Assembly (NCBI GenBank): GCA_019058245.1
Contig: JAHPZJ010000010.1
Coordinates: 32,001-96,000 of the forward strand
Direction: 5' to 3'
Length of the DNA stretch: 64,000 nt
Source of the DNA: Promethearchaeota archaeon
Lineage (GTDB): Archaea; Asgardarchaeota; Lokiarchaeia; Sigyniarchaeales; SOKP01
Below, piece by piece: positions 1,972 to 19,720 of the stretch; positions within the stretch are counted from its first letter, which is position 1; every line of letters begins with the position of its first letter. The notes under the pieces are model-generated. The model ran no database searches and was not told where the DNA came from. It saw only the letters and a program-made list of their open reading frames with translations. Both the position numbers and the translations under genes were made by a program.

Positions 1972-4900
1972 ATGGAAATAAAAATTCAAGGTGCAAAAGA
2001 AAACAACTTAAAAGATGTTAATGTAACCATCAAAGATGGACATACTGTGGTAACAGGTGTTTCTGGATCGGGGAAAACATCACTCATTTTTGATACATTA
2101 TATAAGGAAGCTAGACGTAGATTTTTAGAAGCATTTTCAGTCAGTAAAGAAGAAATAAAACTTAATCCTGCAAATGTGAGGTCAATCACTGGTCTAGGGC
2201 CTACTATCGCACTTAGTCAAAATGTGCTTAATCGAAATCCTAATTCTATTTTAGCATCGGCGATAGGTCTCATACCTTTATTAAAAATTCTATATGCTAG
2301 ATTTGGCGACAGGACATGTCATGTTTGTGGTTCTAAATTATCTGTATTAAAAGAAGATGAAATAATCGCGAAAATTGAGGGATTAAGGCATATCGAGCCC
2401 ATTACAATATCAGCTCTTTTAGTAAAAAAATCAAAAGGGAGTCATCAAACCTTAATTAGCCTTTTGAAAAAGAAATTCAGTTCTGAAACTCTCTTGGTAG
2501 ATGGAAAACCCATAATTTCAAAATTAAATCCAAAAAAACCTCATGATATTCAGATTCAAATTGGTCAAATAACAACTAGCACTGATATTAGTGAGATTAG
2601 AGATATAGTTGAAACTATCTCTTCATTAGGAGCAAATTCATTAATAATTAAGGGAAAAACATCTAATTTTCGAATTTCTCGAGTACCTGTATGTATGGAA
2701 TGCGGTACTTGGTACGGAGAGCTTGAACCAATGCATTTTAAGAAAAATTGTCCTTATTGTAAAGGAAAAGGGTGCAAGCAATGTAATCAAACAGGATATC
2801 ACCCCCTTGCATCTAATGTTACTTGGGAGGGTATGTTATTTCCCGAGATTCTAACAAAATCAGTTGGAGAACTAGTAACTTATTTCTCTAAAGAAGAACT
2901 CACAATTACAGCTAGGCTAATACAAGAAATAAAAAGGCGATTAATATCATTAAATTCTGTAGGATTAGAATATTTAGAATTAGATCGTGTTTCACCAACA
3001 TTATCTAGAGGAGAATCTCAAAGAGTTCGACTAGCTATAGCTTTATTGAGTGAACTAGAAGATATTACTCATATCCTTGATGAACCAACGATTGGTCAAC
3101 ATCCATCTGACGTCGCTCGATTACTGCCTATATTTCAGAATCTTGCTGGTCCGATAATTTATATTGAACATGATCGGCAAGCTGTTACGTATGCAGACAA
3201 TGTTATTGATATTGGTCCAGGAGCTGGAAGAGAAGGAGGTGAAATTATATTTACTGGAACTCCTGCAGAGTTATGGAAATCAGATACGTCTACAGGTAAG
3301 TTTTTTAGCTTGAGAGAACGGGTTATAATTCCCCAACATAGAGCTAAACCTCAACTTTTTTTAATAATTGAGAAAGCTTATAGGCATAATTTGAAAAATA
3401 TTAATGTTAAAATTCCCTTAAACCGACTAACAGTTATCACAGGTGTATCTGGTTCTGGAAAAAGTACATTGGTAGAAGATGTTTTATTTAGTTCATTAAA
3501 AAAAAAAGAACCAATAGGTTGTAATAAAATTACTGGGGTAAAGGTGATACCTATCATGGTAGATCAAGGACCTATAGGGAAAAATCCAAGATCAAATCCA
3601 GCTACTTACACTAAAATTGCTGATGTTATTAGAAAGCTATTTGCTAAAGCTACTGAATTTAAAGCTACGTTCTTTTCATTCAATACTCCAGAAGGCCAAT
3701 GTCCAACATGTAGTGGGATGGGTTCCCTCGAAATTAAGATGAGATACTTACCCTCTAATTGGATCACCTGTCCAGACTGTAATGGTCAGAGGTTTTCTGA
3801 AGAGATACTCGAGGAAAAAGTTCAGTTTGAAGATGATGAGTATTCTATTGCAGAATTCTATGATCTACCAATTTCAGAAGTTGAAAAAATTTTTGATAAA
3901 GAAAGAAGATTGACTGTTGGAGATCTTAATTCAGCAAGACAAATGTTGAAAGCGCTTAATGATATAGGATTAGGATATCTCTCCTTAGGGCAACCTTCTC
4001 CAACATTATCTGGGGGTGAAGCTCAGCGAATTAAATTATCAAAATATCTTGGAAAAAAAAATTTAAAAGATCATTTAATAATTCTTGATGAACCTTCAAC
4101 AGGATTACACTCTCAAGATTTAGCGGGGTTATTGACAATTTTAGATAGATTACTCCACATTGGAGCAACAATTGTGATCGTAGAACATAATATTGATATA
4201 ATTAGGGCTGCTGATTGGATTATAGACCTTGGTCAAGGTTCAGGACCAAATGGTGGTAAAGTTATGTATCAAGGTCCTTTAGATAAGTTCATGGAAACTG
4301 AAGAATCTCTTACTGCTCAAGCTTTAAAATTGGAAGAAAGTGTTACTCCATTAATCAAGAAAAAAAAGAAAATAAGAAAGAGTTCAGAACACATTATCAT
4401 TCAAAATGCTCACGTTCATAATCTTAAGAATGTAAATGTCAAAATCCCAAAAAAGAAATTTACTGTAGTCACAGGAGTTTCAGGGTCGGGGAAATCTAGC
4501 CTAATAATGGATACACTTGAAATGGAAGCAAGACGCAGAAATTTAGAAACTTTATCAATGTATGAAAGACAAAGTACCAAAGAAACTACCGAAGCGTTAG
4601 TAGAAAATATTCAAGGGTTAGGGATAACAGCATCAATAATACCAGAAAAGATTATCCATGGTTGGTTTTTAAACCTTCGAAATACCATAGGGAGGGTTAC
4701 AGATATAACACTCCATTTAGCGAATATATTTTCATATATGGGAGAATTATCGTGTCCTAAATGTAGTCAGAAAATGAAAAGAGAGGAAAAATGGTATTGT
4801 AAAAAGTGTAATATCTCATTACCTCTTGCTAAACCACGACATTTTATTTCTACAAATTATTCAGCAGCTTGCCTTAAATGTCATGGTGTTGGTTCATTTC

Positions 4901-6843
4901 AAGTTCCTAATCCTAATAAATTAATAGTGCACCCCAACAAACCTTTATGTAACGGTGCCATGTACTCTCCAGGTTTTTTTCCAAAAGGATATTTATGTAA
5001 ACCATATAATGGTGGATATTATATAGTTCAAGCTTTAGCAACTCGTTATGGTTTTGATCCTTTTTCAAAACCTTGGAATGAAATATCAAAAGAAGCAAAA
5101 GATGCATTTTTATTTGGAGATAAAGAAGTTTTAGATGTTGAATTTGAGAATAAGAAAGGTCAAATCTCTAGAAAATTAATTCAGTACCAAGGCTTTTATG
5201 GACACTGGTTAAGAGATTGGGATGTTGGAGGTACATATACAGATAATAAAACTTGTGATGAATGTAATGGTTTGAAATTACGTCCCCAATATCTTGCTAT
5301 CTCATTGGAAGGTTATAATTTACCTCAGATGTGCAATATTTCTTTGAACAAATTATATGGAATATTAAAAGAAGTAAAGATGGCAGATAATATTGCCGAT
5401 TTTGTAAAGAACAGTTATGAGATTATTTTAACACGTTTGAAATTTTTACTTAAAATTGGATTAGGTTATATTACTCTAAATCGTGTTTCTGAAAGTTTAT
5501 CTGCAGGAGAAGCTCAGAGAGTTCGGTTAGCTGGATTATTGGGTAGTGATTTGACATCTTTAACAATTTTACTTGATGAGCCCAGTAGAGGTTTATCTCC
5601 TCCAGAAATTGAAAATTTATTAGACATATTAAAAGAATTAAGGGATAACGGAAATACAGTCATAGTTATTGAACATGATCCTTTAATTATTAATAATGCT
5701 GATTATATAATAGATATGGGCCCTGGAGCGGGTGTAAATGGTGGAAAAATTGTTGCAAAAGGAACTATAGAGGATATAATAAAAGCAAAAACTATTACGG
5801 GAGACTGGATGAGTGGAAAAAAAAAATTTGAAGTATCTAAAAAACACCGAGAACCTAAAAAATGGCTAAAGATCTATGGTGCAAAAGAAAACAATTTAAA
5901 GGGGGAATTAATTGAGATTCCTCATAAATTATTAGTAGGATTATGTGGGGTTTCTGGTTCAGGAAAAAGTACTCTAATAATTGATACTTTGGGAAGAGCC
6001 TTGGTACCTATTAAGCATACAACATCAGTATCTCGAGAACCTATTGACCCGGGAGAATATGAGAAGATTGAAGGTACCTTACCTCAGACAATATTAATCG
6101 ATCAAACAAAAACTAAAATCGGAAGTCCTCTTAAATTTTTAGGATTAGAATCTCCAATAATAAAAATATTTTCTGAGACTGAAGATGCCAAAATTTTAGG
6201 TTTAGATGAAAAAAAACTAAAAAAGAGATGCTCTGTTTGTAAAGGGAGAGGTTATATCAAGATAGATATGAAATTTCTTCCCAATATTATTGAGACTTGT
6301 GAAACTTGTAATGGATCGGGGTATCAAATTGAAGCATGGCAAGTTCATTTTAAAGGAATTTCCTTGCCTGATATTAATAATTTAACTATTGAGGAAGCCT
6401 ATGAATTATTTGAAGAATATGAATCCATTTCTACTAAATTAAATTATGCTAAAAAAGTAGGACTACAATATTTACAACTAAATCAGCCTGCTCGCACTCT
6501 TTCTGGAGGTGAAGCTCAAAGACTTAAGATAGTAAAAGAATTATCTAAAAATTCTAAAAAAGAAACACTATATATCTTAGATGAACCGACTATCGGTCAA
6601 CACTTAGAAGATGTTTCTAAGCTAATTAATACTCTACATTTATTAATCGATAATGGCAATAGTGTAGTTGTTATTGAACATCATCCATATGTATTGGCTT
6701 CTTGTGATTGGCTATTAGAGTTAGGGCCAGGAGCAGGACCAGAAGGAGGCCATATAATTGCACAAGGACCACCTAGTGAAATAGCTAAATTAAACACTCC
6801 AACAGCACCATATTTAAAAGAAGTATTAGAGGGAGGAAAATGA
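1972..6843 (+). CDS. uvrA: Double-length UvrA-like protein (four ABC ATPase domains)
   Basis: 1623 aa with four GVSGSGK(S/T) Walker A motifs, four LS(G/R/A)GE(S/A)QR signatures with LDEP, and multiple CxxC pairs. Confidence 0.88.
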   Translation: MEIKIQGAKENNLKDVNVTIKDGHTVVTGVSGSGKTSLIFDTLYKEARRRFLEAFSVSKEEIKLNPANVRSITGLGPTIALSQNVLNRNPNSILASAIGLIPLLKILYARFGDRTCHVCGSKLSVLKEDEIIAKIEGLRHIEPITISALLVKKSKGSHQTLISLLKKKFSSETLLVDGKPIISKLNPKKPHDIQIQIGQITTSTDISEIRDIVETISSLGANSLIIKGKTSNFRISRVPVCMECGTWYGELEPMHFKKNCPYCKGKGCKQCNQTGYHPLASNVTWEGMLFPEILTKSVGELVTYFSKEELTITARLIQEIKRRLISLNSVGLEYLELDRVSPTLSRGESQRVRLAIALLSELEDITHILDEPTIGQHPSDVARLLPIFQNLAGPIIYIEHDRQAVTYADNVIDIGPGAGREGGEIIFTGTPAELWKSDTSTGKFFSLRERVIIPQHRAKPQLFLIIEKAYRHNLKNINVKIPLNRLTVITGVSGSGKSTLVEDVLFSSLKKKEPIGCNKITGVKVIPIMVDQGPIGKNPRSNPATYTKIADVIRKLFAKATEFKATFFSFNTPEGQCPTCSGMGSLEIKMRYLPSNWITCPDCNGQRFSEEILEEKVQFEDDEYSIAEFYDLPISEVEKIFDKERRLTVGDLNSARQMLKALNDIGLGYLSLGQPSPTLSGGEAQRIKLSKYLGKKNLKDHLIILDEPSTGLHSQDLAGLLTILDRLLHIGATIVIVEHNIDIIRAADWIIDLGQGSGPNGGKVMYQGPLDKFMETEESLTAQALKLEESVTPLIKKKKKIRKSSEHIIIQNAHVHNLKNVNVKIPKKKFTVVTGVSGSGKSSLIMDTLEMEARRRNLETLSMYERQSTKETTEALVENIQGLGITASIIPEKIIHGWFLNLRNTIGRVTDITLHLANIFSYMGELSCPKCSQKMKREEKWYCKKCNISLPLAKPRHFISTNYSAACLKCHGVGSFQVPNPNKLIVHPNKPLCNGAMYSPGFFPKGYLCKPYNGGYYIVQALATRYGFDPFSKPWNEISKEAKDAFLFGDKEVLDVEFENKKGQISRKLIQYQGFYGHWLRDWDVGGTYTDNKTCDECNGLKLRPQYLAISLEGYNLPQMCNISLNKLYGILKEVKMADNIADFVKNSYEIILTRLKFLLKIGLGYITLNRVSESLSAGEAQRVRLAGLLGSDLTSLTILLDEPSRGLSPPEIENLLDILKELRDNGNTVIVIEHDPLIINNADYIIDMGPGAGVNGGKIVAKGTIEDIIKAKTITGDWMSGKKKFEVSKKHREPKKWLKIYGAKENNLKGELIEIPHKLLVGLCGVSGSGKSTLIIDTLGRALVPIKHTTSVSREPIDPGEYEKIEGTLPQTILIDQTKTKIGSPLKFLGLESPIIKIFSETEDAKILGLDEKKLKKRCSVCKGRGYIKIDMKFLPNIIETCETCNGSGYQIEAWQVHFKGISLPDINNLTIEEAYELFEEYESISTKLNYAKKVGLQYLQLNQPARTLSGGEAQRLKIVKELSKNSKKETLYILDEPTIGQHLEDVSKLINTLHLLIDNGNSVVVIEHHPYVLASCDWLLELGPGAGPEGGHIIAQGPPSEIAKLNTPTAPYLKEVLEGGK

Positions 6844-9103: not shown

Positions 9104-10726
9104 ATGGTTGGTAAAAACGATATTGCGGTTTCCGAAATGATGGAAAAAATTAGAGGATCCCTTATCCTCCCTGAGAGAGCATATTTTTTTGATACAACGC
9201 TCCGTGATGGGGAACAAACTCCAGGTATAAGTTTCACTCATAAAGAAAAGCTATCTATTGCTCAAGCTCTTAATGAGTTGGGAATTGATATCATAGAAGC
9301 GGGATTTCCTATTACATCTCAGGGAGATTTTGAAGCTTGTAGAGATATTGCGAAAATGGGTTTAGATTCTGAAGTGATGGGTTTAGCTAGAACAGCAAAG
9401 CCTGATATAGATAAAGTTATAGAGGCAGATATGGATAGTATACACCTATTTTGTGCCACTTCAGAATTGCATATGAGAGAAAAACTTCAATTAACTAGAG
9501 ATGAAGTCATAGAAAGAATAAGAGAAACCGTCTCATACGCTAAAGAACATTATTCTATTGTACTATTTTCAGCTGAGGATGCAACTAGATCAGATTTAGA
9601 TTTTTTAATTAAAGCTAACTTAACTGCTGTTGAGAGTGGGGCTACACGAATAAATATACCTGATACTGTAGGTACTATTTCTCCAGTAGCTTTTGGATAT
9701 ATTATACGGAAAAATTATGACGCCTTACCTAAAAATATTCGTATTGCGGCTCATTGTCATAATGATTTTGGTCTTGCTGTAGCAAATACTATTGCTGGGT
9801 TTGAAAATGGTGTTTCAGAAGCTCAAACAACAATTTTAGGCTTGGGTGAACGAGCAGGAAATGCATCTTTTGAAGAAACTTGTATGTCTCTTTATGCTCT
9901 ATATCAAATACCTATGAATATTAAAACAACAAAGATTTTTCCTACAGCTAAATTAGTAGAAAGTTTTTGTGGTGGGAAAGTCAGAATTGGTCGATTACAA
10001 CCCCTTATAGGGCAGAATGCATTTGCTCACGAAGCAGGTATTCACGCACACGCGATGCTACAACATGCGCGAACATATGAACCCATTACACCAGAATTAA
10101 TAGGAATTCACCGTACCGATGATGTGGAAGCAATTATAAAGCAATCAATAAAACTTGGAAAACACACAGGTGGTCATGCTCTTAAGGCTAAAATTAATGA
10201 CTTAGGTATTAGCCCTACTGATGAACAATTTACGAAAATAAGGCAACATGTAAAAAGTCTTGGTGATAAGGGGCATGAAGTTTCTGAAGAGGATTTTTTA
10301 GCAATTGTTAAAGATGTCATGGGGGAAATACCAAAAGAAGAACAATATGTTACTCTTGAAGAGTTAACTGTTTTGACTGGATCAGTTACACCTACATCAA
10401 CAGTTCGATTAAACATCAAAAATAATGGAGATATATTGCAAAAAGTAGCATCAGCAACGGGAGTAGGGCCTGTAGATGCCTCATGTAATGCAATTGTTAA
10501 ATGCTTTAAACCGATGAGTAAGATTGTACTTTTAAATTTTCAAATTGATGCTATTACTGGTGGAACTGAAGCATTAGGTCATGTTACCCTTGAAATCATG
10601 GATGTTGATAGTAATATAGTAGTCAAAGCTAGTGCGATTCATGAAGATATTGTTATGTGCTCTGTTCTATCTTTGATAAAAGGATTAAATCTAATTGTCA
10701 AGAAAAAGAGCATAACCTTAAATTAA
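9104..10726 (+). CDS. leuA: 2-isopropylmalate synthase (LeuA/CimA family)
   Basis: DTTLRDGEQ, HCHND and GLGERAGN motifs, a C-terminal regulatory domain (GVGPVDA), and first position in the leuCDB cluster. Confidence 0.85.
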   Translation: MVGKNDIAVSEMMEKIRGSLILPERAYFFDTTLRDGEQTPGISFTHKEKLSIAQALNELGIDIIEAGFPITSQGDFEACRDIAKMGLDSEVMGLARTAKPDIDKVIEADMDSIHLFCATSELHMREKLQLTRDEVIERIRETVSYAKEHYSIVLFSAEDATRSDLDFLIKANLTAVESGATRINIPDTVGTISPVAFGYIIRKNYDALPKNIRIAAHCHNDFGLAVANTIAGFENGVSEAQTTILGLGERAGNASFEETCMSLYALYQIPMNIKTTKIFPTAKLVESFCGGKVRIGRLQPLIGQNAFAHEAGIHAHAMLQHARTYEPITPELIGIHRTDDVEAIIKQSIKLGKHTGGHALKAKINDLGISPTDEQFTKIRQHVKSLGDKGHEVSEEDFLAIVKDVMGEIPKEEQYVTLEELTVLTGSVTPTSTVRLNIKNNGDILQKVASATGVGPVDASCNAIVKCFKPMSKIVLLNFQIDAITGGTEALGHVTLEIMDVDSNIVVKASAIHEDIVMCSVLSLIKGLNLIVKKKSITLN

Positions 10727-10760
10727 TTAAATTCAATAAAAAACACGAATTTTAGGAATT

Positions 10761-12032
10761 ATGGATTTAACAATTAGTGAAAAAATCATAAGAGATCATT
10801 GTGAGCAAAAGGATCTTTCTGCTGGAGATTTTGTTTTAGTAAAAATTGATAAATGTTTAGGTAATGATATAACTGCACCAAAAGCTATAGAAGTTTTCGA
10901 AGAAATTGTTGAGGGAACTGAAAGAAGTGTTTTTGATCCAAGTAAGATAATACTTACACCAGATCATTTTACACCAAATAAGGATATTGCTTCGGCAATA
11001 CAGTGCAAAATTTTAAAAGATTTTGCAAGGAAGTACCACATTCAACACTATTATGAAGTAGGAAAAGTAGGAATTGAACATTGTCTTCTTCCCGAACAAG
11101 GATTAATTGCTCCGAGTGAGTTAATTATCGGTGCTGATTCTCATACTTGTACATATGGGGCATTAGGTGCTTTTTCTACTGGTGTTGGCTCAACTGATCT
11201 AGGTGTGGCAATGGCTCTTGGAGAATGTTGGCTTCAAGTACCTGAAACCTTGAGATTCAAATATACAGGTCAGTTAAATAAATGGGTTTCAGGTAAAGAT
11301 TTAATCTTGTATACTATTGGTAAAATTGGAGTTGATGGGGCAACATATAAGGTTATGGAATTTACAGGTGAAATTATCAACAACCTTTCTATGGCAAACC
11401 GTTTTACTATGTGTAATATGGCTATAGAAGCAGGCGCAAAAACAGGGTTCATTTTTCCAGATAAGATTACTGAACAATATCTAAAAAGTGTAGGAATTTC
11501 TAAATTTAAAACCTATGAGAATAATAATACAAAATATCATGAAAGTATTGAGATTGATTGTAATACTATTGAACCTCAAATAGCTCTTCCACATTTACCA
11601 AGCAATACAAAACCAATATCTGAAGTACAGGATATGCATATTGAAATTGATCAAGCTGTAATTGGATCTTGTACCAATGGACGAATAGAAGATTTACGGA
11701 TAGCAGCAAAAATAATGAAAGACAACAAGATTCACCCTAGTGTAAGATGTATTATCATTCCAGGAACTCCTACCATTCAATTTGATGCTCTTAAAGAAGG
11801 ATTAATTGAAATTTTTCTTAAAGCTGGAGCGATTGTATCTCCACCCACATGCGGTCCATGTTTAGGAGGTCATATGGGAATCCTTGCTCCTGGTGAAAGA
11901 GCAATTTCAACAACAAATAGAAATTTTATGGGAAGGATGGGACATAAAGATAGTGAAGTCTATTTATCAAATCCAGCGATTGCAGCAACTTCTGCCTTAA
12001 AAGGTTTTATTGCATCTCCAGAAAGTATGTAA
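10761..12032 (+). CDS. leuC: 3-isopropylmalate dehydratase large subunit
   Basis: GADSHTCTYG, IGSCTNGR, CGPCLG and STTNRNF motifs. Confidence 0.92.
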   Translation: MDLTISEKIIRDHCEQKDLSAGDFVLVKIDKCLGNDITAPKAIEVFEEIVEGTERSVFDPSKIILTPDHFTPNKDIASAIQCKILKDFARKYHIQHYYEVGKVGIEHCLLPEQGLIAPSELIIGADSHTCTYGALGAFSTGVGSTDLGVAMALGECWLQVPETLRFKYTGQLNKWVSGKDLILYTIGKIGVDGATYKVMEFTGEIINNLSMANRFTMCNMAIEAGAKTGFIFPDKITEQYLKSVGISKFKTYENNNTKYHESIEIDCNTIEPQIALPHLPSNTKPISEVQDMHIEIDQAVIGSCTNGRIEDLRIAAKIMKDNKIHPSVRCIIIPGTPTIQFDALKEGLIEIFLKAGAIVSPPTCGPCLGGHMGILAPGERAISTTNRNFMGRMGHKDSEVYLSNPAIAATSALKGFIASPESM

Positions 12033-12050
12033 AAGAATATAATTTAGAAG

Positions 12051-12569
12051 GTGAAAAAAATGAAAGGTAAAGTAATTAAATATCCTCAAGAGAATATTAA
12101 TACTGATTTGATAATTCCTGCTCGATACTTAGTAGATATAAATCCTCAATTTTTAGCGGAGCACTGTATGGAAGATTTAGATATGGAATTTCATAAGAAT
12201 AAAAATAATCTTCAAGCAACAATTCTCGTCTCAGGTTCTAATTTCGGTTGCGGATCAAGCCGAGAACAAGCACCAATAGCCTTGAAAGCTACGGGAATAG
12301 AATTAATAATCGCTCCCAGTTTTGCACGTATATTTTTCAGAAATGCTATTAATATTGGTCTTCCAATTCTTCAATTTTCTGATATTGATGCTTTTAATAG
12401 TGGAGATCTGCTAGATATTGATTTTGGAAAAGGAGTTATAGAAAATATAACTACTAGTAAATCATATTCTTTTAGCAAATTTCCAGCTTTTTTACAGAAA
12501 ATAATTAAAGTTCACGGCTTAATAAATTTTGCAAGAGAACAAATTGCTAATTCAGAAGAGGGATCATAA
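12051..12569 (+). CDS. leuD: 3-isopropylmalate dehydratase small subunit
   Basis: NINTDLIIP, NFGCGSSREQA and SFARIFFRNAINIG motifs. The true start is probably ATG 12060 because the called GTG lies inside the RBS. Confidence 0.92.
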   Translation: MKKMKGKVIKYPQENINTDLIIPARYLVDINPQFLAEHCMEDLDMEFHKNKNNLQATILVSGSNFGCGSSREQAPIALKATGIELIIAPSFARIFFRNAINIGLPILQFSDIDAFNSGDLLDIDFGKGVIENITTSKSYSFSKFPAFLQKIIKVHGLINFAREQIANSEEGS

Positions 12570-13633
12570 TGAAAAAAATAATTGCAGTCACTCATGGTGA
12601 TGGATGTGGATTAGAAGTAGTAGAAGAAGGGATAAAGATTCTAAAAGCTATTTCTGAATATAGTGATTTTGATTTTGAATTTATAAACGCTCCAGCTGGA
12701 GGTAAAGTTTGGAAAGATTGTGGTGAAAGTCTTCCAGAGAAAACATTTGAAATTATTAAGAATTCTGATGCTTTATTATTTGGTGCTATTGGGCTTCCTG
12801 ATTTACCCCCTGGAATTGCTGAAACTGCAATCTTAAAGATAAGACAAGATTTAGATCTATACGTGAATATGAGGCCAATTAAGTTATATAATCCTCTACG
12901 TGATAGATGCCCACTTAGAGATGAATTTATAGGAAAAGGTATTGATTTCACTATTATTAGAGAAAATACAGAGGGAATATATAAAGGAATAGGAGAAATA
13001 TCAGATGAGAGGGCTGAAAGTGTGATGCTTTATACTAAAAAAGGGTGTGAAAGAATTATGCGATATGCTTGTGAATTTGCAAAAAAGAATGGTCATAAAA
13101 AAATTACATCTGTAGATAAAGCAAATGTTATAAAAGCAAGTCAATTTTGGCGCAATATCTTTCATAAAATTGGGGAAGATTATCCCGATTTAGAGAAAGA
13201 GGATGTCTATATTGATGCTTTTTGTCAATGGTTAATTCGTGCTCCTTATTCTTACGAAACAGTAGTTACAGGCAATATGTTTGGTGATATTACTAGTGAT
13301 GAAGGTGCTTTTCTGATTGGTAGTTTAGGAATGGCCGCCAGTGGAAACATAAATCCAGGAAATGTTTCAATGTATGAACCAATACATGGTTCGGCTCCTG
13401 ATATTGCTGGAAAAAATATAGCTAATCCAATAGGTACTATTTTAAGTATAAAATTGATGATGCAGGAATCGTTTAATTCGCCAGAAATAGGATTTTTAAT
13501 TGAAAAATCTGTAGAAGAAGCCCTTAACGAAGGAAGAACCATAGATATTGAGAATAAAGCTTTTAAGACTCTAACTACGAGAGAAATGGGGGATCTAATA
13601 GTAAAAAAGTTGATAAACTTGCTTAAAAAGTAG
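12569..13633 (+). CDS. leuB: 3-isopropylmalate dehydrogenase
   Basis: IRENTEG, VDKANV, NMFGDITSD and YEPIHGSAPDIAG motifs. Confidence 0.9.
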   Translation: MKKIIAVTHGDGCGLEVVEEGIKILKAISEYSDFDFEFINAPAGGKVWKDCGESLPEKTFEIIKNSDALLFGAIGLPDLPPGIAETAILKIRQDLDLYVNMRPIKLYNPLRDRCPLRDEFIGKGIDFTIIRENTEGIYKGIGEISDERAESVMLYTKKGCERIMRYACEFAKKNGHKKITSVDKANVIKASQFWRNIFHKIGEDYPDLEKEDVYIDAFCQWLIRAPYSYETVVTGNMFGDITSDEGAFLIGSLGMAASGNINPGNVSMYEPIHGSAPDIAGKNIANPIGTILSIKLMMQESFNSPEIGFLIEKSVEEALNEGRTIDIENKAFKTLTTREMGDLIVKKLINLLKK

Positions 13634-13660: not shown

Positions 13661-14083
13661 CTAAGAATTATTATTATTTTTATCTAACAACTCATTTTTA
13701 AATTTCTTAATTTCCTTAGCTAAATTTGAGTTCAAACCGGGGTGATCTTCTACGGGAAGATCAATTCCCATTATTGGTGCTAAGATCTCTCCTTTCTCGT
13801 TAATTACATCATAATCTTTTAAAATTTTTTTTTTTGTTTCTATTTTTTCATCATTAGATATCCAAAGCATCCCTTTAGGACAATTAATTAAGATCTTTGT
13901 GACTAAATGTATTTGTTTCATACAATTTGGACATTCATAATAGTATTTATCATCAAGAAATTTTTGAATTAACTCTGGATTTAACCACGTATTAATTGAT
14001 GCTTCCCAGATAACCCGAAACGAGTATTTACAGTGAGGACAAATTATTTCAGTACTAGTTAAATGTGTCATAATTCTTTTCAA
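13661..14083 (-). CDS. CpXC-type zinc-binding protein
   Basis: CPHC...SINT...CPNC pattern. Confidence 0.6.
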   Translation of the reverse strand: MKRIMTHLTSTEIICPHCKYSFRVIWEASINTWLNPELIQKFLDDKYYYECPNCMKQIHLVTKILINCPKGMLWISNDEKIETKKKILKDYDVINEKGEILAPIMGIDLPVEDHPGLNSNLAKEIKKFKNELLDKNNNNS

Positions 14084-14164
14084 TCTATTTAAAGAATTTA
14101 TATGTTAATTAAATTCCATCTTTTTTTTGTTGTTTATGATCCATAACATGAGTGTCACCATATT

Positions 14165-15382
14165 GTGACAATATTTAAATATTATCGTTTTTATTTTAAC
14201 TATAAATTAATATTAAAAAAAAGAGGTGGTTTTAAAATTTCAGTCAACGGGGATTTTAAAAATAATAGACCCATTGTTATAGATAATGGGACTGGTATAT
14301 CAAAAAATGGATTTGGAGGAGAAGATCAGCCACGCTCGGTTTTTCCAACTGTCATTGGTAAACCAAAGTATGGAAACATCATGCCTGATGTAAAGAATTA
14401 CAGCCGAGAATGGTATGTTGGGGAAGAAGCAATGGAATTAAAAGGGATCATGAATCTACAATTTCCTATTGAACATGGAGTTGTTGAAGATTGGCCAGCA
14501 ATGGAAAGGATATACCATTATACATTCTATACAGATTTAAGAATAGATCCTTCAGAATTTCCTGTATTGTTAACAGAAGCTCCATTGAATCCTAGATCAA
14601 ATAGAGAAAAAATGGCAGAAATAATGTTCGAAACATTCAATGTTCCTGCTCTTTATATCGCAACACAAGCAGTTTTATCACTATACGCTTCTGGTCGAAC
14701 TACTGGGTGTGTAGTAGATATAGGGGATGGAGTTGCACATATTGTGCCAATTTTTGAGGGTTTTGCTCTAAGTCATGCGATACAGAGAATAGATCTAGCG
14801 GGAAGAGATGTTACAACATATTTACAGAGATTATTACGTCAAAATGGATATTCATTTTATACATCAGCAGAGAAACAGATTGTTAGAGATATTAAGGAAA
14901 AATTATGCTATGTTGCTCTTGATCCTGAAAAAGAGATTATGCTCTCAAATAAAGTATCAGGGATGGCAAAAAATTATATGCTTCCAGATGGAGAGACTAT
15001 TACAATTGGACTTGAAAGATTCCTAGCTCCAGAAAGTCTATTCAATCCTTCTGTAGTAGGAAAGGAATTGCCTCCTTTAGATGAAGTAATCGTTGGTGCG
15101 ATTTCTGATTGTGATGTTGATCTTCGAAGAGATTTATATAGTAATATTGTACTCTCAGGTGGTTCCACCATGTTTCCGGGTATTAAAGAGAGATTAACTA
15201 GAGAGTTAAAAGAACAACTTCCTGAATCCATTGATGTAAAGATTATAGCACCGCCAGAAAGAATGTATTCTGTATGGATTGGTGGATCTATTTTGAGTTC
15301 CTTAAAGACTTTTAGTAGAATGTGGGTAAGTCGAAGAGATTACAAGGAAATGGGACCTCAAGTTATCCATCGATGTTTTTAA
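14165..15382 (+). CDS. Actin / actin-related protein (Asgard type)
   Basis: [80 protein letters not shown] and C-terminal IHRCF. The real start is probably downstream of 14165 (ATT at 14237 after GAGGTGG). Confidence 0.95.
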
Positions 15383-15616
15383 ATGGCTTTATTTAAAATA
15401 AATTATAAAGTGACAATAATTGTGAGAATTAAAATAATTGATGGAATAGCTTGTATTGAACTAGATGATGGAATAATTTTATCTACAAAGGATTTAAAAA
15501 GTGAATTCAAGAAATTGATTATGCCAGACAATTTCACTGATATTCAGGAATCTAAAGAAAGCAAATATTATAATAAGGTTTTGGAAGAAATTAAAAAGAA
15601 ATTTGGAGAAAAATAA
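15383..15616 (+). CDS. Small hypothetical protein
   Basis: Begins immediately after the actin stop; no recognisable motif. Confidence 0.5.
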   Translation: MALFKINYKVTIIVRIKIIDGIACIELDDGIILSTKDLKSEFKKLIMPDNFTDIQESKESKYYNKVLEEIKKKFGEK

Positions 15617-15673
15617 ATAATTATAATTTTTTTTTATTAAAATAAAGATTAGTCAAGGAGAGGATTCAATAAT

Positions 15674-16912
15674 ATGGAAAAAATGACACAAGCTCTAAAT
15701 GAATTAATAAAGTCAGAATCAAAGACTATTGCTGCCACAATCATTAAAGGTGAAAATGATATTGAGTATTCAACAGAGAATTGGGATATTAGCAATGATA
15801 TTGATGAGATTAATTTAGCTTGGGAATCAGAAGAATATAAAACACTTATTATTTCTAATATTAAATATGTAATTATCCAGCGTACTCCTGAAAGACTTGT
15901 TGGAATTGATCCTTCTAATAAAGGAGGAATTTTAGGCTTTAAAGATGAAGAGAGAAAAGTAATATGTAAGATTGCTCCTGATGGATTAAAGCGATTAGGG
16001 ATGATGGAAGTTTCTCGTATTTTAGGTAAGCTCAGTTCAAAAAAACCATATATTGATTTCGATACCCAATTAGGTAAAGTAGAAGAATTGAAATGGGCAA
16101 CTCCAAGAATTCTTCTTGATGATACAAATAATTTGCAGGAACTAGGATTACTAAAATTTGGATTAAGTATTGAAGAAGCTAAAGTATATTTGACATTGTT
16201 AAAGAGAGGTAAAGAGGGAGCAAAAGTTGGTGAATTAAATGAAGATCTCTCCATTAAAAGAACAACGATCTATCGTATAATTGATCGTTTAATCAGTAAG
16301 AGTTGGGTTATAAAATTACCATTGATGCCCAAAAGTGCGCAAAATTTTATAGCAAGACCCCTAAACGATATTCTCGATGAGAGAATTCAGAAAAAGGAAG
16401 AAGAATTAAAGATTCTAAAGAGTTTTCGCTATATCATGGGTGAGATACTAGAGAATGGATGGATAGATATCTCAGAAATTAAAAAAGATTTTCAATTATA
16501 TAGTAAAAAGGCTTTTGATTTTAACACTCTTGGAATTATGGGGGAGGAAAAGGATTGTGGTCTTATAATCTTTGAATACAATAAAAAAATAAAAGAAGAA
16601 GTAATAATTAAAGCGGCCCTACAACTATCATCCGAAAAAATGAGAGAACCAATACAACCCGATCTTGATAAAAAAAAATTTACAATCCCCGATCTTGAAG
16701 ATATAAAAATAGAAGATACCAAAATTCAAGATTATTTTGGCATGACAATGTATTTCAAATTTAAAGAAGGAACTGAAACGGGAAATAATGTTGGGTTGGG
16801 TTGGATAGTAGCAGCTAGGCATGTAGCTGTTCCTATTAAGAATAAGATCTATGTTGTTTGGGGATCCGAAGAACAATTTCCAATTTTATTAAGTATTATT
16901 TTAAAATTATAA
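15674..16912 (+). CDS. Profilin-like domain fused to TrmB-type winged HTH and a C-terminal domain of unknown function
   Basis: The N-terminal ~120 aa (YSTENWDISND, ISNIKYVIIQRTPERLVG..NKGGI) resembles Loki profilins as I recall them. Residues ~155-220 (FGLSIEEAKVYLTLL...RTTIYRIIDRLISKSWV) match a TrmB HTH. A strong GGAGAGG RBS precedes the ATG. Confidence 0.75.
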   Translation: MEKMTQALNELIKSESKTIAATIIKGENDIEYSTENWDISNDIDEINLAWESEEYKTLIISNIKYVIIQRTPERLVGIDPSNKGGILGFKDEERKVICKIAPDGLKRLGMMEVSRILGKLSSKKPYIDFDTQLGKVEELKWATPRILLDDTNNLQELGLLKFGLSIEEAKVYLTLLKRGKEGAKVGELNEDLSIKRTTIYRIIDRLISKSWVIKLPLMPKSAQNFIARPLNDILDERIQKKEEELKILKSFRYIMGEILENGWIDISEIKKDFQLYSKKAFDFNTLGIMGEEKDCGLIIFEYNKKIKEEVIIKAALQLSSEKMREPIQPDLDKKKFTIPDLEDIKIEDTKIQDYFGMTMYFKFKEGTETGNNVGLGWIVAARHVAVPIKNKIYVVWGSEEQFPILLSIILKL

Positions 16913-16922
16913 GATTTTTACA

Positions 16923-17471
16923 ATGACAGCACAAATTCCAGATGAGTTTATTTTGAATGGTGAATCTTTTTCGTTGGTAGGATTAAAGGGTAAAGGGTTA
17001 GTAGAACCTGAGGATTTAGGGATATCACCATATTCCAGTTGCACTGCTTGTTGGCGAGGGTATGTTATGAAATATAATTTTACGAAAAACAAATTAATCC
17101 TTGATGAATTACAGGTTAATGTTGATGATCCTCCAAAAATCAATGGTGTTGAAGCTCAGCAAGAGAGTTCTTTATTTAAATATCATTATAAGAATTTGAA
17201 GCTTCAAACAAACTTTACTGGGAGTATTCTTCTTGCAAAAGACTTTATACAATCTATGTATGTCCATATGGGATTTCAGAGACCCATGGCTTTTAAGACA
17301 GTTGTTGAAATAGATATAAAGAATGGAGAAATCATCTCATTAAAAGATCTGTCTAAAAAGATGGAAAATTTAAGGAAAAAAGATCTATATAAAGGAGCAC
17401 AACCTCAATCTGACTCAAAGAGAGACATTGAAGAATGGGTTAAGCAAACCTTTTCCCTTGATTATGATTGA
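16923..17471 (+). CDS. Conserved hypothetical protein (MTAQIPD...STACWRGY type)
   Basis: Clean 182-aa ORF in operon arrangement; carries a CTACWRGY motif. Confidence 0.65.
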   Translation: MTAQIPDEFILNGESFSLVGLKGKGLVEPEDLGISPYSSCTACWRGYVMKYNFTKNKLILDELQVNVDDPPKINGVEAQQESSLFKYHYKNLKLQTNFTGSILLAKDFIQSMYVHMGFQRPMAFKTVVEIDIKNGEIISLKDLSKKMENLRKKDLYKGAQPQSDSKRDIEEWVKQTFSLDYD

Positions 17472-18198: not shown

Positions 18199-18729
18199 TT
18201 AAATTTTAATAAAATTGTATTGTTTATCATTACTATAAGCTAATTTAAAGAGTCCTTTGGAAGTAATTAAATCAATTATTTGATCTTCATTATAATGATG
18301 GTCATCAAGACTGAGTATCGAATTTGGCTTTAGAATTCTATAGAATTCTTTTATAATGTTATTTTTATTAGAGATTCCATGAAGTACATCAAAACAAATT
18401 ATTCGATCAATACTCTCATCATCCAATTTGGTATCACAATCTGTCTGAATTGTTTCAATAATGTTATAACCCATTTTTTTTGCTTTCTTTCTCACCTTTT
18501 TCAATGCTAATGGATGAATATCTGCTGCGATAAGTTTTCCCGTTGTCCCTATTTTTTCAGCAGCAGCTAGGGAATAACTTCCTGGACCACATCCATAATC
18601 TAATACTGTTTCTCCTTGTCTAATATCAGCATTTTTAATTTTTATTATAGGATTATGAAATATATCTCGAATTTTAAAGAAAAAGGACATACACTTGAAA
18701 TCTAAATTTGATTGTTTTTTATTCTTCAT
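18199..18729 (-). CDS. Class I SAM-dependent methyltransferase
   Basis: VLDYGCGPG motif I; overlaps the end of the upstream AbrB-like gene. Confidence 0.85.
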   Translation of the reverse strand: MKNKKQSNLDFKCMSFFFKIRDIFHNPIIKIKNADIRQGETVLDYGCGPGSYSLAAAEKIGTTGKLIAADIHPLALKKVRKKAKKMGYNIIETIQTDCDTKLDDESIDRIICFDVLHGISNKNNIIKEFYRILKPNSILSLDDHHYNEDQIIDLITSKGLFKLAYSNDKQYNFIKI

Positions 18730-19177
18730 TATTTAAATCACCTTTATCATTTTCCTGAATTTCCCCTAAACCACTTCCAAATCCTTGAAATAGTTTTGAA
18801 GCAAAATTTTTCAATCTTGTGGCTTTCATTAGACCAAGTCCTTTATTAAGATCCCCAAATACGAGGATTAAATCTCCAGGATTTATTCTAAAAGACTCCC
18901 GAGCGTCTTGTGGAATTACAATCTGCCCTCTTTCGCCCACTTTAGCAGTGCCAAAATAGTATTCATGCTTTTCAATTTCATTTTTATCGATTTCCAAAAT
19001 TTTTGTAAGACCTAATCCTTTATTTAATTCTCCAAATATATGTATGTCATCTTTAGCATTTATCCCAAAAATCTCTCTTGCTTTAAGAGGTATAACAATT
19101 TGGCCACGTTCACCAACCTTTACTGAACCAAAAAAGTAGTTTCCTTTTTTACCGGGAAATTCAGTTATTTTAATCAC
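18719..19177 (-). CDS. Tandem AbrB/MazE/SpoVT-domain DNA-binding protein
   Basis: Two internal repeats of FG(S/T)(V/A)KVGERGQIVIP..ARE.F.I. Confidence 0.85.
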   Translation of the reverse strand: MIKITEFPGKKGNYFFGSVKVGERGQIVIPLKAREIFGINAKDDIHIFGELNKGLGLTKILEIDKNEIEKHEYYFGTAKVGERGQIVIPQDARESFRINPGDLILVFGDLNKGLGLMKATRLKNFASKLFQGFGSGLGEIQENDKGDLNNEE

Positions 19178-19186
19178 CTTTTATAA

Positions 19187-19229
19187 ATCATATTGATATG
19201 ATCATATTCGTATGATCATACGAATCATA
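19187..19229. promoter_or_regulatory. Palindromic operator array upstream of the AbrB-like gene
   Basis: Perfect 20-bp palindrome ATTCGTATGATCATACGAAT (19206-19225), an overlapping ATATGATCATAT (19196-19207), and four ATCATA copies. Confidence 0.65.
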
Positions 19230-19252
19230 CTATTTAAAAGTTTTGCTTTTTT

Positions 19253-19720
19253 TCATTCAAAAATTTCAATTTCAGGATGTTCTTTTGCTTCCTTAAATAT
19301 TGGTCCTTTTGCGATAAATCCGATCGCCAAATGACTACCTCTTCCAGAAAGTAAGAGATCATTTTCATTAATTTCAAATGCATTTAAAGTTCTTTCTGGC
19401 AGAATTATACTTTTATCTTCTTGGATTTTTAACCAACAATATTTTTTATTTTTGAATTCGATAATTTCACCCTCAGGTATTTCATAATTAGCTAATGAAG
19501 GATTTTTTTCTATCACTTCATTCATAATTGAATTTCTTAAGATCCTCATGGAACTTAATCCAAATCCACCTGAAGTTTTACTACCTGAAAATAAGATAGC
19601 AGATTTATCAAGTGATAAATTGTACTCTTGAAAAGCTTCGAGAGGAATCTTAATTTTGCCTTGATTTCCTATTATTGACCATCCAAATACATACTTTCCT
19701 CCTTTTACAATTTGAGGCAT
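19253..19720 (-). CDS. AbrB-like duplicated-domain protein
   Basis: MPQIVKGGKYVFGWSIIGNQGKIKIP swapped-hairpin-like start, with a second degenerate repeat. Confidence 0.55.
   Translation of the reverse strand: MPQIVKGGKYVFGWSIIGNQGKIKIPLEAFQEYNLSLDKSAILFSGSKTSGGFGLSSMRILRNSIMNEVIEKNPSLANYEIPEGEIIEFKNKKYCWLKIQEDKSIILPERTLNAFEINENDLLLSGRGSHLAIGFIAKGPIFKEAKEHPEIEIFE

Follow-up and report, generated by a model that had tools for sequence, protein, structure and literature searches.

Within the window, by which we mean the whole stretch of 64,000 nucleotides that was analysed, an actin gene, a small open reading frame (ORF) and a gene for a 412-aa protein with a profilin domain and a DNA-binding domain follow one another on the forward strand. 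This locus raises the question of whether the 412-aa protein regulates the actin gene and whether it does so in response to actin itself. A sequence-only reading had listed the three ORFs (actin, 77 aa, and 412 aa) and had divided the largest product into a profilin domain, a TrmB-type winged helix-turn-helix (wHTH), a coil, and a C-terminal domain. All three ORFs were found, co-oriented on the + strand, and the layout was confirmed by sequence and fold searches (Table 1). An assembly or frameshift artefact was ruled out as the source of the fusion: 159 homologues were found, most of them full-length, and the fusion ORF was open without internal stops in 45 genomes.

Table 1 Features of the second-actin operon, with positions counted in the window
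Feature	Position	Strand	Basis or remark
Perfect palindrome TGTCAC-N6-GTGACA, candidate operator	14153..14170	.	right half over the BRE position
Actin ORF as called	14165-15382	+	ORF list
TATA box	14174..14181	+	sequence; 3 nt past the palindrome
Shine-Dalgarno-like motif	14223-14229	+	sequence
Probable ATT start codon of actin	14237-14239	+	inferred from aligned promoters
Second Lokiactin, cassette type, ~381 aa	14237..15382	+	Pfam Actin
Conserved small ORF, called with 77 aa, true length probably ~65 aa	15383..15616	+	homologues in cassettes
Run of 9 T upstream of regulator, possible leaky terminator	15627..15635	+	sequence
412-aa regulator ORF	15674-16912	+	
Profilin domain, regulator residues 1-121, without Loki loop	15674..16036	+	sequence, profile, fold
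Conserved linker, residues 122-149, with subfamily KxPY motif	16037..16120	+	conservation
TrmB-type wHTH, residues 150-229	16121..16360	+	Pfam PF01978
Long helix, residues 230-254, probable dimerisation coil	16361..16435	+	structure model
C-terminal alpha/beta domain, weakly PsbP/Mog1/DcrB-like	16436..16912	+	model; common to the profilin-less paralogue

The GTG at which the called actin ORF begins was rejected as the start codon; it lies inside the candidate operator and upstream of the TATA box. The true start is most likely the ATT that follows the Shine-Dalgarno-like motif. Among the aligned promoters, 16 have ATT at the matching position, 4 have TTG, and 3 have ATG. Such a weak start codon may limit the level of this actin. 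At another locus (L028), the fusion gene seems to start with ACG. Judged by its orthologues, the small ORF probably starts near 15419-15422. It was present in roughly half of the cassettes (the actin and regulator genes with or without this ORF), and members of four genera have homologues of it in the space separating the actin and regulator genes; neither Pfam nor the Atlas gave a match to it, and an ESM Atlas feature search gave nothing usable. A run of at least 6 T occurred in the gap before the regulator in most loci, where the surrounding DNA is AT-rich, and a role as leaky terminator is possible.

Among the neighbours, a 182-aa ORF without a Pfam match (16923-17471) starts 10 nt past the regulator, is found at the same position in many loci, and may belong to the operon. 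A CpXC-family zinc-ribbon gene (13661-14083), present only in some loci, is divergent from the actin promoter. A 1623-aa UvrA-like protein with doubled ATPase modules is encoded at 1972-6843; its neighbours are another UvrA-like ORF and a prenyltransferase/cyclase-repeat-like gene, and many genomes have this block alongside the cassette. Four genes at 9104-13633, which we take to be a leucine biosynthesis operon, were missing from the matching place in close relatives. At 18719-19720, among methyltransferase genes, lie two small proteins that presumably carry repeated AbrB-like motifs.

The assignment of the N-terminal ~120 aa to the profilins was upheld by sequence, profile, and Foldseek searches alike. 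Residues 2-121 matched Loki profilin-1 and -2 and the Odin and Thor profilins with sequence E values of 2e-7 to 6e-4, and the family profile matched solved profilins with E values of 5e-16 to 1e-9 (5e-16 to 5YED and 5e-12 to 5ZZA). When the AlphaFold model was searched with Foldseek, the top 36 matches were all profilins, the best being those of Loki and Odin (best E 4e-9), and the TM-scores by target to the Loki and Odin structures were 0.75-0.80. The sheet, the three-strand insert, and the N- and C-terminal helices of profilin were all present in the model. A generic roadblock/PAS/GAF fold was rejected; CodY appeared only at rank 37, with an rmsd of 18. The Pfam Profilin model gave no match to the 412-aa protein. 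The domain does not contain the Loki loop and falls outside the clade of tested, canonical Loki profilins (split 100/99), and the source genome has its own canonical profilin on contig C31.

The wHTH, which is central in the fusion and not N-terminal, matched Pfam TrmB over residues 159-215 with 42 bits (cut-off 25.6), and the recognition-helix residues K195, R196, T197, I199, Y200, and R201 were invariant in 50 sequences. The 25-residue helix that follows it in the AlphaFold model is a probable dimerisation coil; TrmB has a coil in the corresponding place (PMC4158304). The earlier description as a TrmB-type regulator holds for the DNA-binding domain, and the likeness probably ends there: the fusion matched neither the TrmB nor the TrmBL1 equivalog (its paralogue, described below, scores 27 vs 650), and the TrmB sugar-binding domain gave no Pfam or NCBIfam match and no TrmB structure among the fold-search matches. 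Several members of the PsbP/Mog1/DcrB group were among the top fold matches of the C-terminal domain. These matches were weak (best Z 6.0, rmsd 4.7, 100 aligned residues), the rows as a whole (Z 5-6, rmsd 3.8-5.7, 95-105 aligned) lay within the range of common arrangements, and the best Foldseek hit, to PsbP, had a weak E of 0.01. An ESM Atlas feature search with this domain gave nothing usable.

We then turn to the promoter on which the regulator was proposed to act. The palindrome is the sole perfect copy of TGTCAC-N6-GTGACA in the 3.09-Mb genome, where 0.057 would be expected. Of 36 cassette promoters, 31 have its core, TGTC-N10-GACA, as against 0 of 20 canonical actin promoters. The right half-site stands 3-4 nt ahead of the TATA box in 33 of the 36, and some cassette promoters have a second half-site 11 nt further upstream. 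The intergenic DNA around the palindrome and the TATA box has fully diverged, and those two elements have been kept. A family-wide scan for the core with a TATA box gave hits in 29 genomes, and almost all of these lay at a cassette actin or at a locus of the paralogue. A wider regulon was rejected; the genome contained one single-mismatch site (C28:193474), close to where a gene of the opposite strand ends and without a clear target. The palindrome is unlikely to be an element of the CpXC gene, because it persists in loci without that gene.

A paralogue of ~300 aa in 22 genomes consists of the wHTH, coil, and C-terminal domain (~32-35% identity to the fusion over these parts), without the profilin domain or the linker. 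In every case its gene and a class I SAM methyltransferase gene point away from each other, with the palindrome between the two (L033:14893-16644 and L071-L092). The core was found in 22 of 22 of these intergenic regions (shuffled mean 0.034), usually 11 nt from the TATA-like box of the methyltransferase gene, and among spacer lengths from 6 to 14 no other was found there. A more distant paralogue at L130 has the same divergent layout. Since the same core occurs at cassette actin and methyltransferase loci, the motif follows the wHTH family to two unrelated targets; this shared pattern of letters is the strongest evidence that the fusion would bind the actin promoter. The proposed action on that promoter has gained a candidate operator, with the binding itself predicted, and we consider it very probable that the fusion protein binds the palindrome and controls its own operon.

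Of the 135 genomes of the source's own Lokiarchaeia family, 45, from four genera, carry the fusion, at 46 loci in all, one of which ends at a contig end. A sample of 196 genomes from other Asgard families yielded no copy. At 45 of these 46 loci, the regulator immediately follows an actin gene, with or without the small ORF between. The linkage to actin genes on which the earlier proposal depended is conserved across the four genera; the synteny that it looked for in other Asgards did not extend to the other families sampled. Because the genomes are related, these counts represent persistence and not independent origins. The lone exception (L052:3867-5156, G049) is an orphan fusion with a divergent linker and with neither actin nor palindrome upstream. 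At three loci with similar neighbourhoods (L132, L133, and L134 in G102, G077, and G126), a C-terminal-domain remnant is all that is left, the actin, profilin, and wHTH being gone, and no cassette actin was found in these three genomes. Most genomes without the regulator carry a single Lokiactin, which, together with the three remnants, suggests that the cassette was lost as one unit in some genomes. In genome G030, the palindrome and TATA box at L129:183-200 are followed by an ORF start where the contig ends, which may represent a cut-off cassette of a fifth genus.

The best explanation, to which we assign about an even chance, is that the fusion is an autoregulator of the second-actin operon that senses G-actin. 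As the co-occurrence of motif and domain suggests, a dimer of the wHTH would bind the palindrome. Archaeal regulators located inside a promoter block TFB or TBP, and activators sit upstream of the BRE (PMC5937170, PMC4158304). The 3-nt gap to the TATA box puts the site over the BRE, and by these rules the bound regulator would block TFB and repress the operon of actin, small protein, and regulator. The N-terminal profilin domain and its KxPY extension are predicted to hold monomeric actin by the barbed-end face, and as this face is nearly identical in both actins of the genome, the regulator would read the whole pool of free G-actin. Once bound, actin would shift operator occupancy and so set the output of the second isoform; negative feedback is the simplest of the possible forms. 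Such a protein may have arisen when a profilin module joined a pre-existing regulator made of wHTH and C-terminal domain. The orphan copy, which lacks both actin and palindrome upstream, and the three remnant genomes, in which no cassette actin was found, speak for this explanation.

The sensing step requires the profilin domain to bind actin. Complex prediction with the second actin and regulator residues 1-134 gave a score of 0.71, compared with 0.00 for the best of three controls, a value that may reflect memory or likeness only, because profilin-actin pairs have already been solved (5ZZA/5ZZB/5YEE). The mark for such scores was reached by 58 of 80 solved pairs and by 2 of 110 mismatched pairs, and the model runs showed at least 94% contact agreement with a partner pLDDT of at least 79. 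The modelled interface is the canonical profilin-actin face (actin 167-174 and 352-375). The closest contacts include linker residues 125-129, absent from solved stand-alone profilins, which were modelled against actin residues 363-367. The suggested complex with the neighbouring actin is a prediction with a canonical interface, and its score may stem from solved look-alikes.

Enrichment of conserved residues on the actin face of the profilin domain was looked for and was not found. With interface residues taken from the complex model and not from crystal structures, the actin-facing positions of the fusion's domain showed no higher conservation than the remaining ones (0.48 vs 0.60), whereas canonical Loki profilins showed the opposite trend (0.88 vs 0.83). 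The dN/dS of actin-facing positions equalled that of the rest (0.216 vs 0.215), and 14 of the 47 members have Glu in place of K64. As a rule, the interfaces between profilin and actin show little conservation (PMC10907219). The missing Loki loop is not decisive against actin binding, because a stand-alone relative of this domain is closest to Odin profilin, itself solved with actin, and because of the same variability of interfaces. We lean modestly towards the prediction that the profilin domain binds monomeric actin and that this binding alters DNA binding.

These rates bear on a competing explanation, in which the same operator regulates the operon but the C-terminal domain reads the signal, and profilin serves as a tether or is carried along in slow decay. 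The profilin domain, with a dN/dS of 0.215, evolves about 3 times faster than the wHTH (0.074) and the C-terminal domain (0.085), the linker having a value of 0.10. Since the paralogue does without profilin, the sensor may be the C-terminal domain, which both proteins share along with the operator core, and TrmB-type regulators place the effector domain after the coil (PMC4158304). A small molecule or a protein would then be the signal, as presumably in the methyltransferase-linked paralogue. Against it, purifying selection still acts on the profilin domain, regulators that carry profilin nearly always neighbour an actin gene and those that lack it a methyltransferase gene, and the complex prediction with actin favours a sensing role for profilin. 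We consider C-terminal sensing rather unlikely.

The relatives of the profilin domain suggest a further possibility. The closest stand-alone relative is a 205-aa protein of profilin and helical tail (L126:622-1245; G000 C8:138422-139045), which occurs in 54 of 61 genomes of the family and has no family annotation. The subfamily module is also fused to Sir2, an LCM methyltransferase, a Ras-like GTPase, RHH-LRR, and repeat or coiled-coil tails (P0155, P0165, P0172, P0181, P0245, P0256, P0143, and P0154). A module of such wide use might bind a ligand other than actin, either an anionic lipid or a subfamily-wide protein partner, and localise or sequester the regulator, for example at the membrane. 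The subfamily-conserved W50, D91, and R94 lie outside the modelled actin interface, in line with this idea, and Asgard profilins interact with PIP2 (PMC8410842). However, Q69, T71, E73, and R74 and the KxPY motif, all within the modelled interface, are kept across the subfamily, and the fusion's tie to the actin gene would be left unexplained; a non-actin ligand is accordingly held to be unlikely. Linker residues P125, Y126, L133, and G134 were 96-100% conserved, and few parts of the protein vary as little as residues 125-129. The polyproline ligand that had been floated is unlikely by analogy with the Loki and Odin profilins (PMC8410842).

The proposed target is a dispensable, faster-evolving second copy and not the main cytoskeletal actin. 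This Lokiactin (Pfam Actin, 430 bits) is 83% identical to the canonical Lokiactin on contig C6, and in an unrooted tree a 100/99 branch separated cassette from canonical actins. Mean identity was 84% among cassette actins compared with 98% among canonical ones, and a dN/dS of 0.047 indicated purifying selection on the former. The C-terminus of the second actin is intact, the phosphate and adenosine loops of cassette actins were 87-97% identical to canonical actins, and the modelled profilin interface was 94% identical compared with 83% elsewhere. The barbed-end face would stay conserved anyway through its contacts in the filament and with canonical profilin. The fixed changes cluster in subdomain 2 and the D-loop (positions 33-81), and subdomain 2 was 55-59% identical to canonical. 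Extra actins without the regulator in G060 and G030 were rejected as cassette type, as they group with canonical actin in the tree. The extra actin of G103 (L118:1212-2610), 1.6 kb from the canonical one, was likewise rejected; outside the tree sample, it reads by sequence as a near-canonical duplicate and lacks the palindrome. A 69-aa ORF just before it is, we assume from its appearance, similar to archaeal histone.

This pattern of change would also suit an actin that no longer forms filaments and instead joins the DNA-bound regulator as a dedicated nucleotide-binding co-regulator subunit, in the manner of nuclear actin-related proteins, with its nucleotide loops and profilin face kept. We regard this as improbable: 86% of the plug region is unchanged, and as the operator is found at this operon only (one perfect and one single-mismatch site in the genome), such a circuit would have almost no output. 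Mere inheritance of gene order, with another factor reading the palindrome, would agree with the descent of all loci from one ancestral cassette in one family, but is very improbable given the survival of palindrome and TATA box in otherwise diverged intergenic DNA and the recurrence of the motif, along with this DNA-binding family, at another target gene.

The autoregulator preferred here can be compared with known systems. Its first domain resembles the stand-alone Asgard profilins (Loki profilin-1, 5YED/5YEE; Loki profilin-2, 5ZZB; Odin, 5ZZA; Thor, 7PBH) in fold, motifs, and modelled interface, and differs from them in the attached DNA-binding domain, the KxPY extension, the weaker conservation of the actin face, and actin binding that is predicted. 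With TrmB and TrmBL1 (Tgr) it shares the order of wHTH and coil and, as a candidate, a palindromic operator at the BRE/TATA region; autoregulation is known for TrmBL1 (PMC4158304). Unlike these, the fusion has no sugar-binding-domain match and an extra N-terminal input domain, and its candidate operator differs from the TGM and from the TrmB site, the target being actin and not sugar genes. The profilin-less paralogue has the same wHTH, coil, C-terminal domain, and operator core, with a methyltransferase target instead of actin. We class the fusion as an archaeal one-component regulator, neither a TrmB sugar sensor nor a canonical Loki profilin; its parts belong to known families, and the papers searched describe neither their combination nor the actin target.

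In animals, free G-actin controls the transcription of an actin gene through MRTF-SRF, a system of two proteins with RPEL and MADS domains that involves nuclear import. The likeness to MRTF-SRF drawn earlier holds for the proposed logic; the fusion is a single protein of profilin and wHTH without homology to that system, and since the cassette is found in one Loki family, the likeness is an analogy and any resemblance convergent. We see the chances as evenly balanced that the locus is a prokaryotic actin-sensing circuit, a convergent counterpart of MRTF-SRF, with profilin as a modular input domain that these Lokiarchaeia attach to sirtuins, methyltransferases, GTPases, and regulators. In the literature accessible without subscription, we found neither a description of the fusion or of its combination and target nor any prokaryotic transcription factor reported to sense the cytoskeleton.

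The restriction of the cassette to one family means that it has no direct bearing on eukaryote ancestry. For the regulation of cytoskeletal genes in Asgard archaea, this locus offers a candidate sensor, a candidate operator, and a target gene, with the profilin-less paralogue of the same operator core as a natural control; as all of these are specified, the question can be tested in vitro. The cassette is an example, from an archaeal lineage, of specialised actin isoforms and of profilins with several domains, and if actin sensing is true, the circuit would be of a type with no known prokaryotic example.
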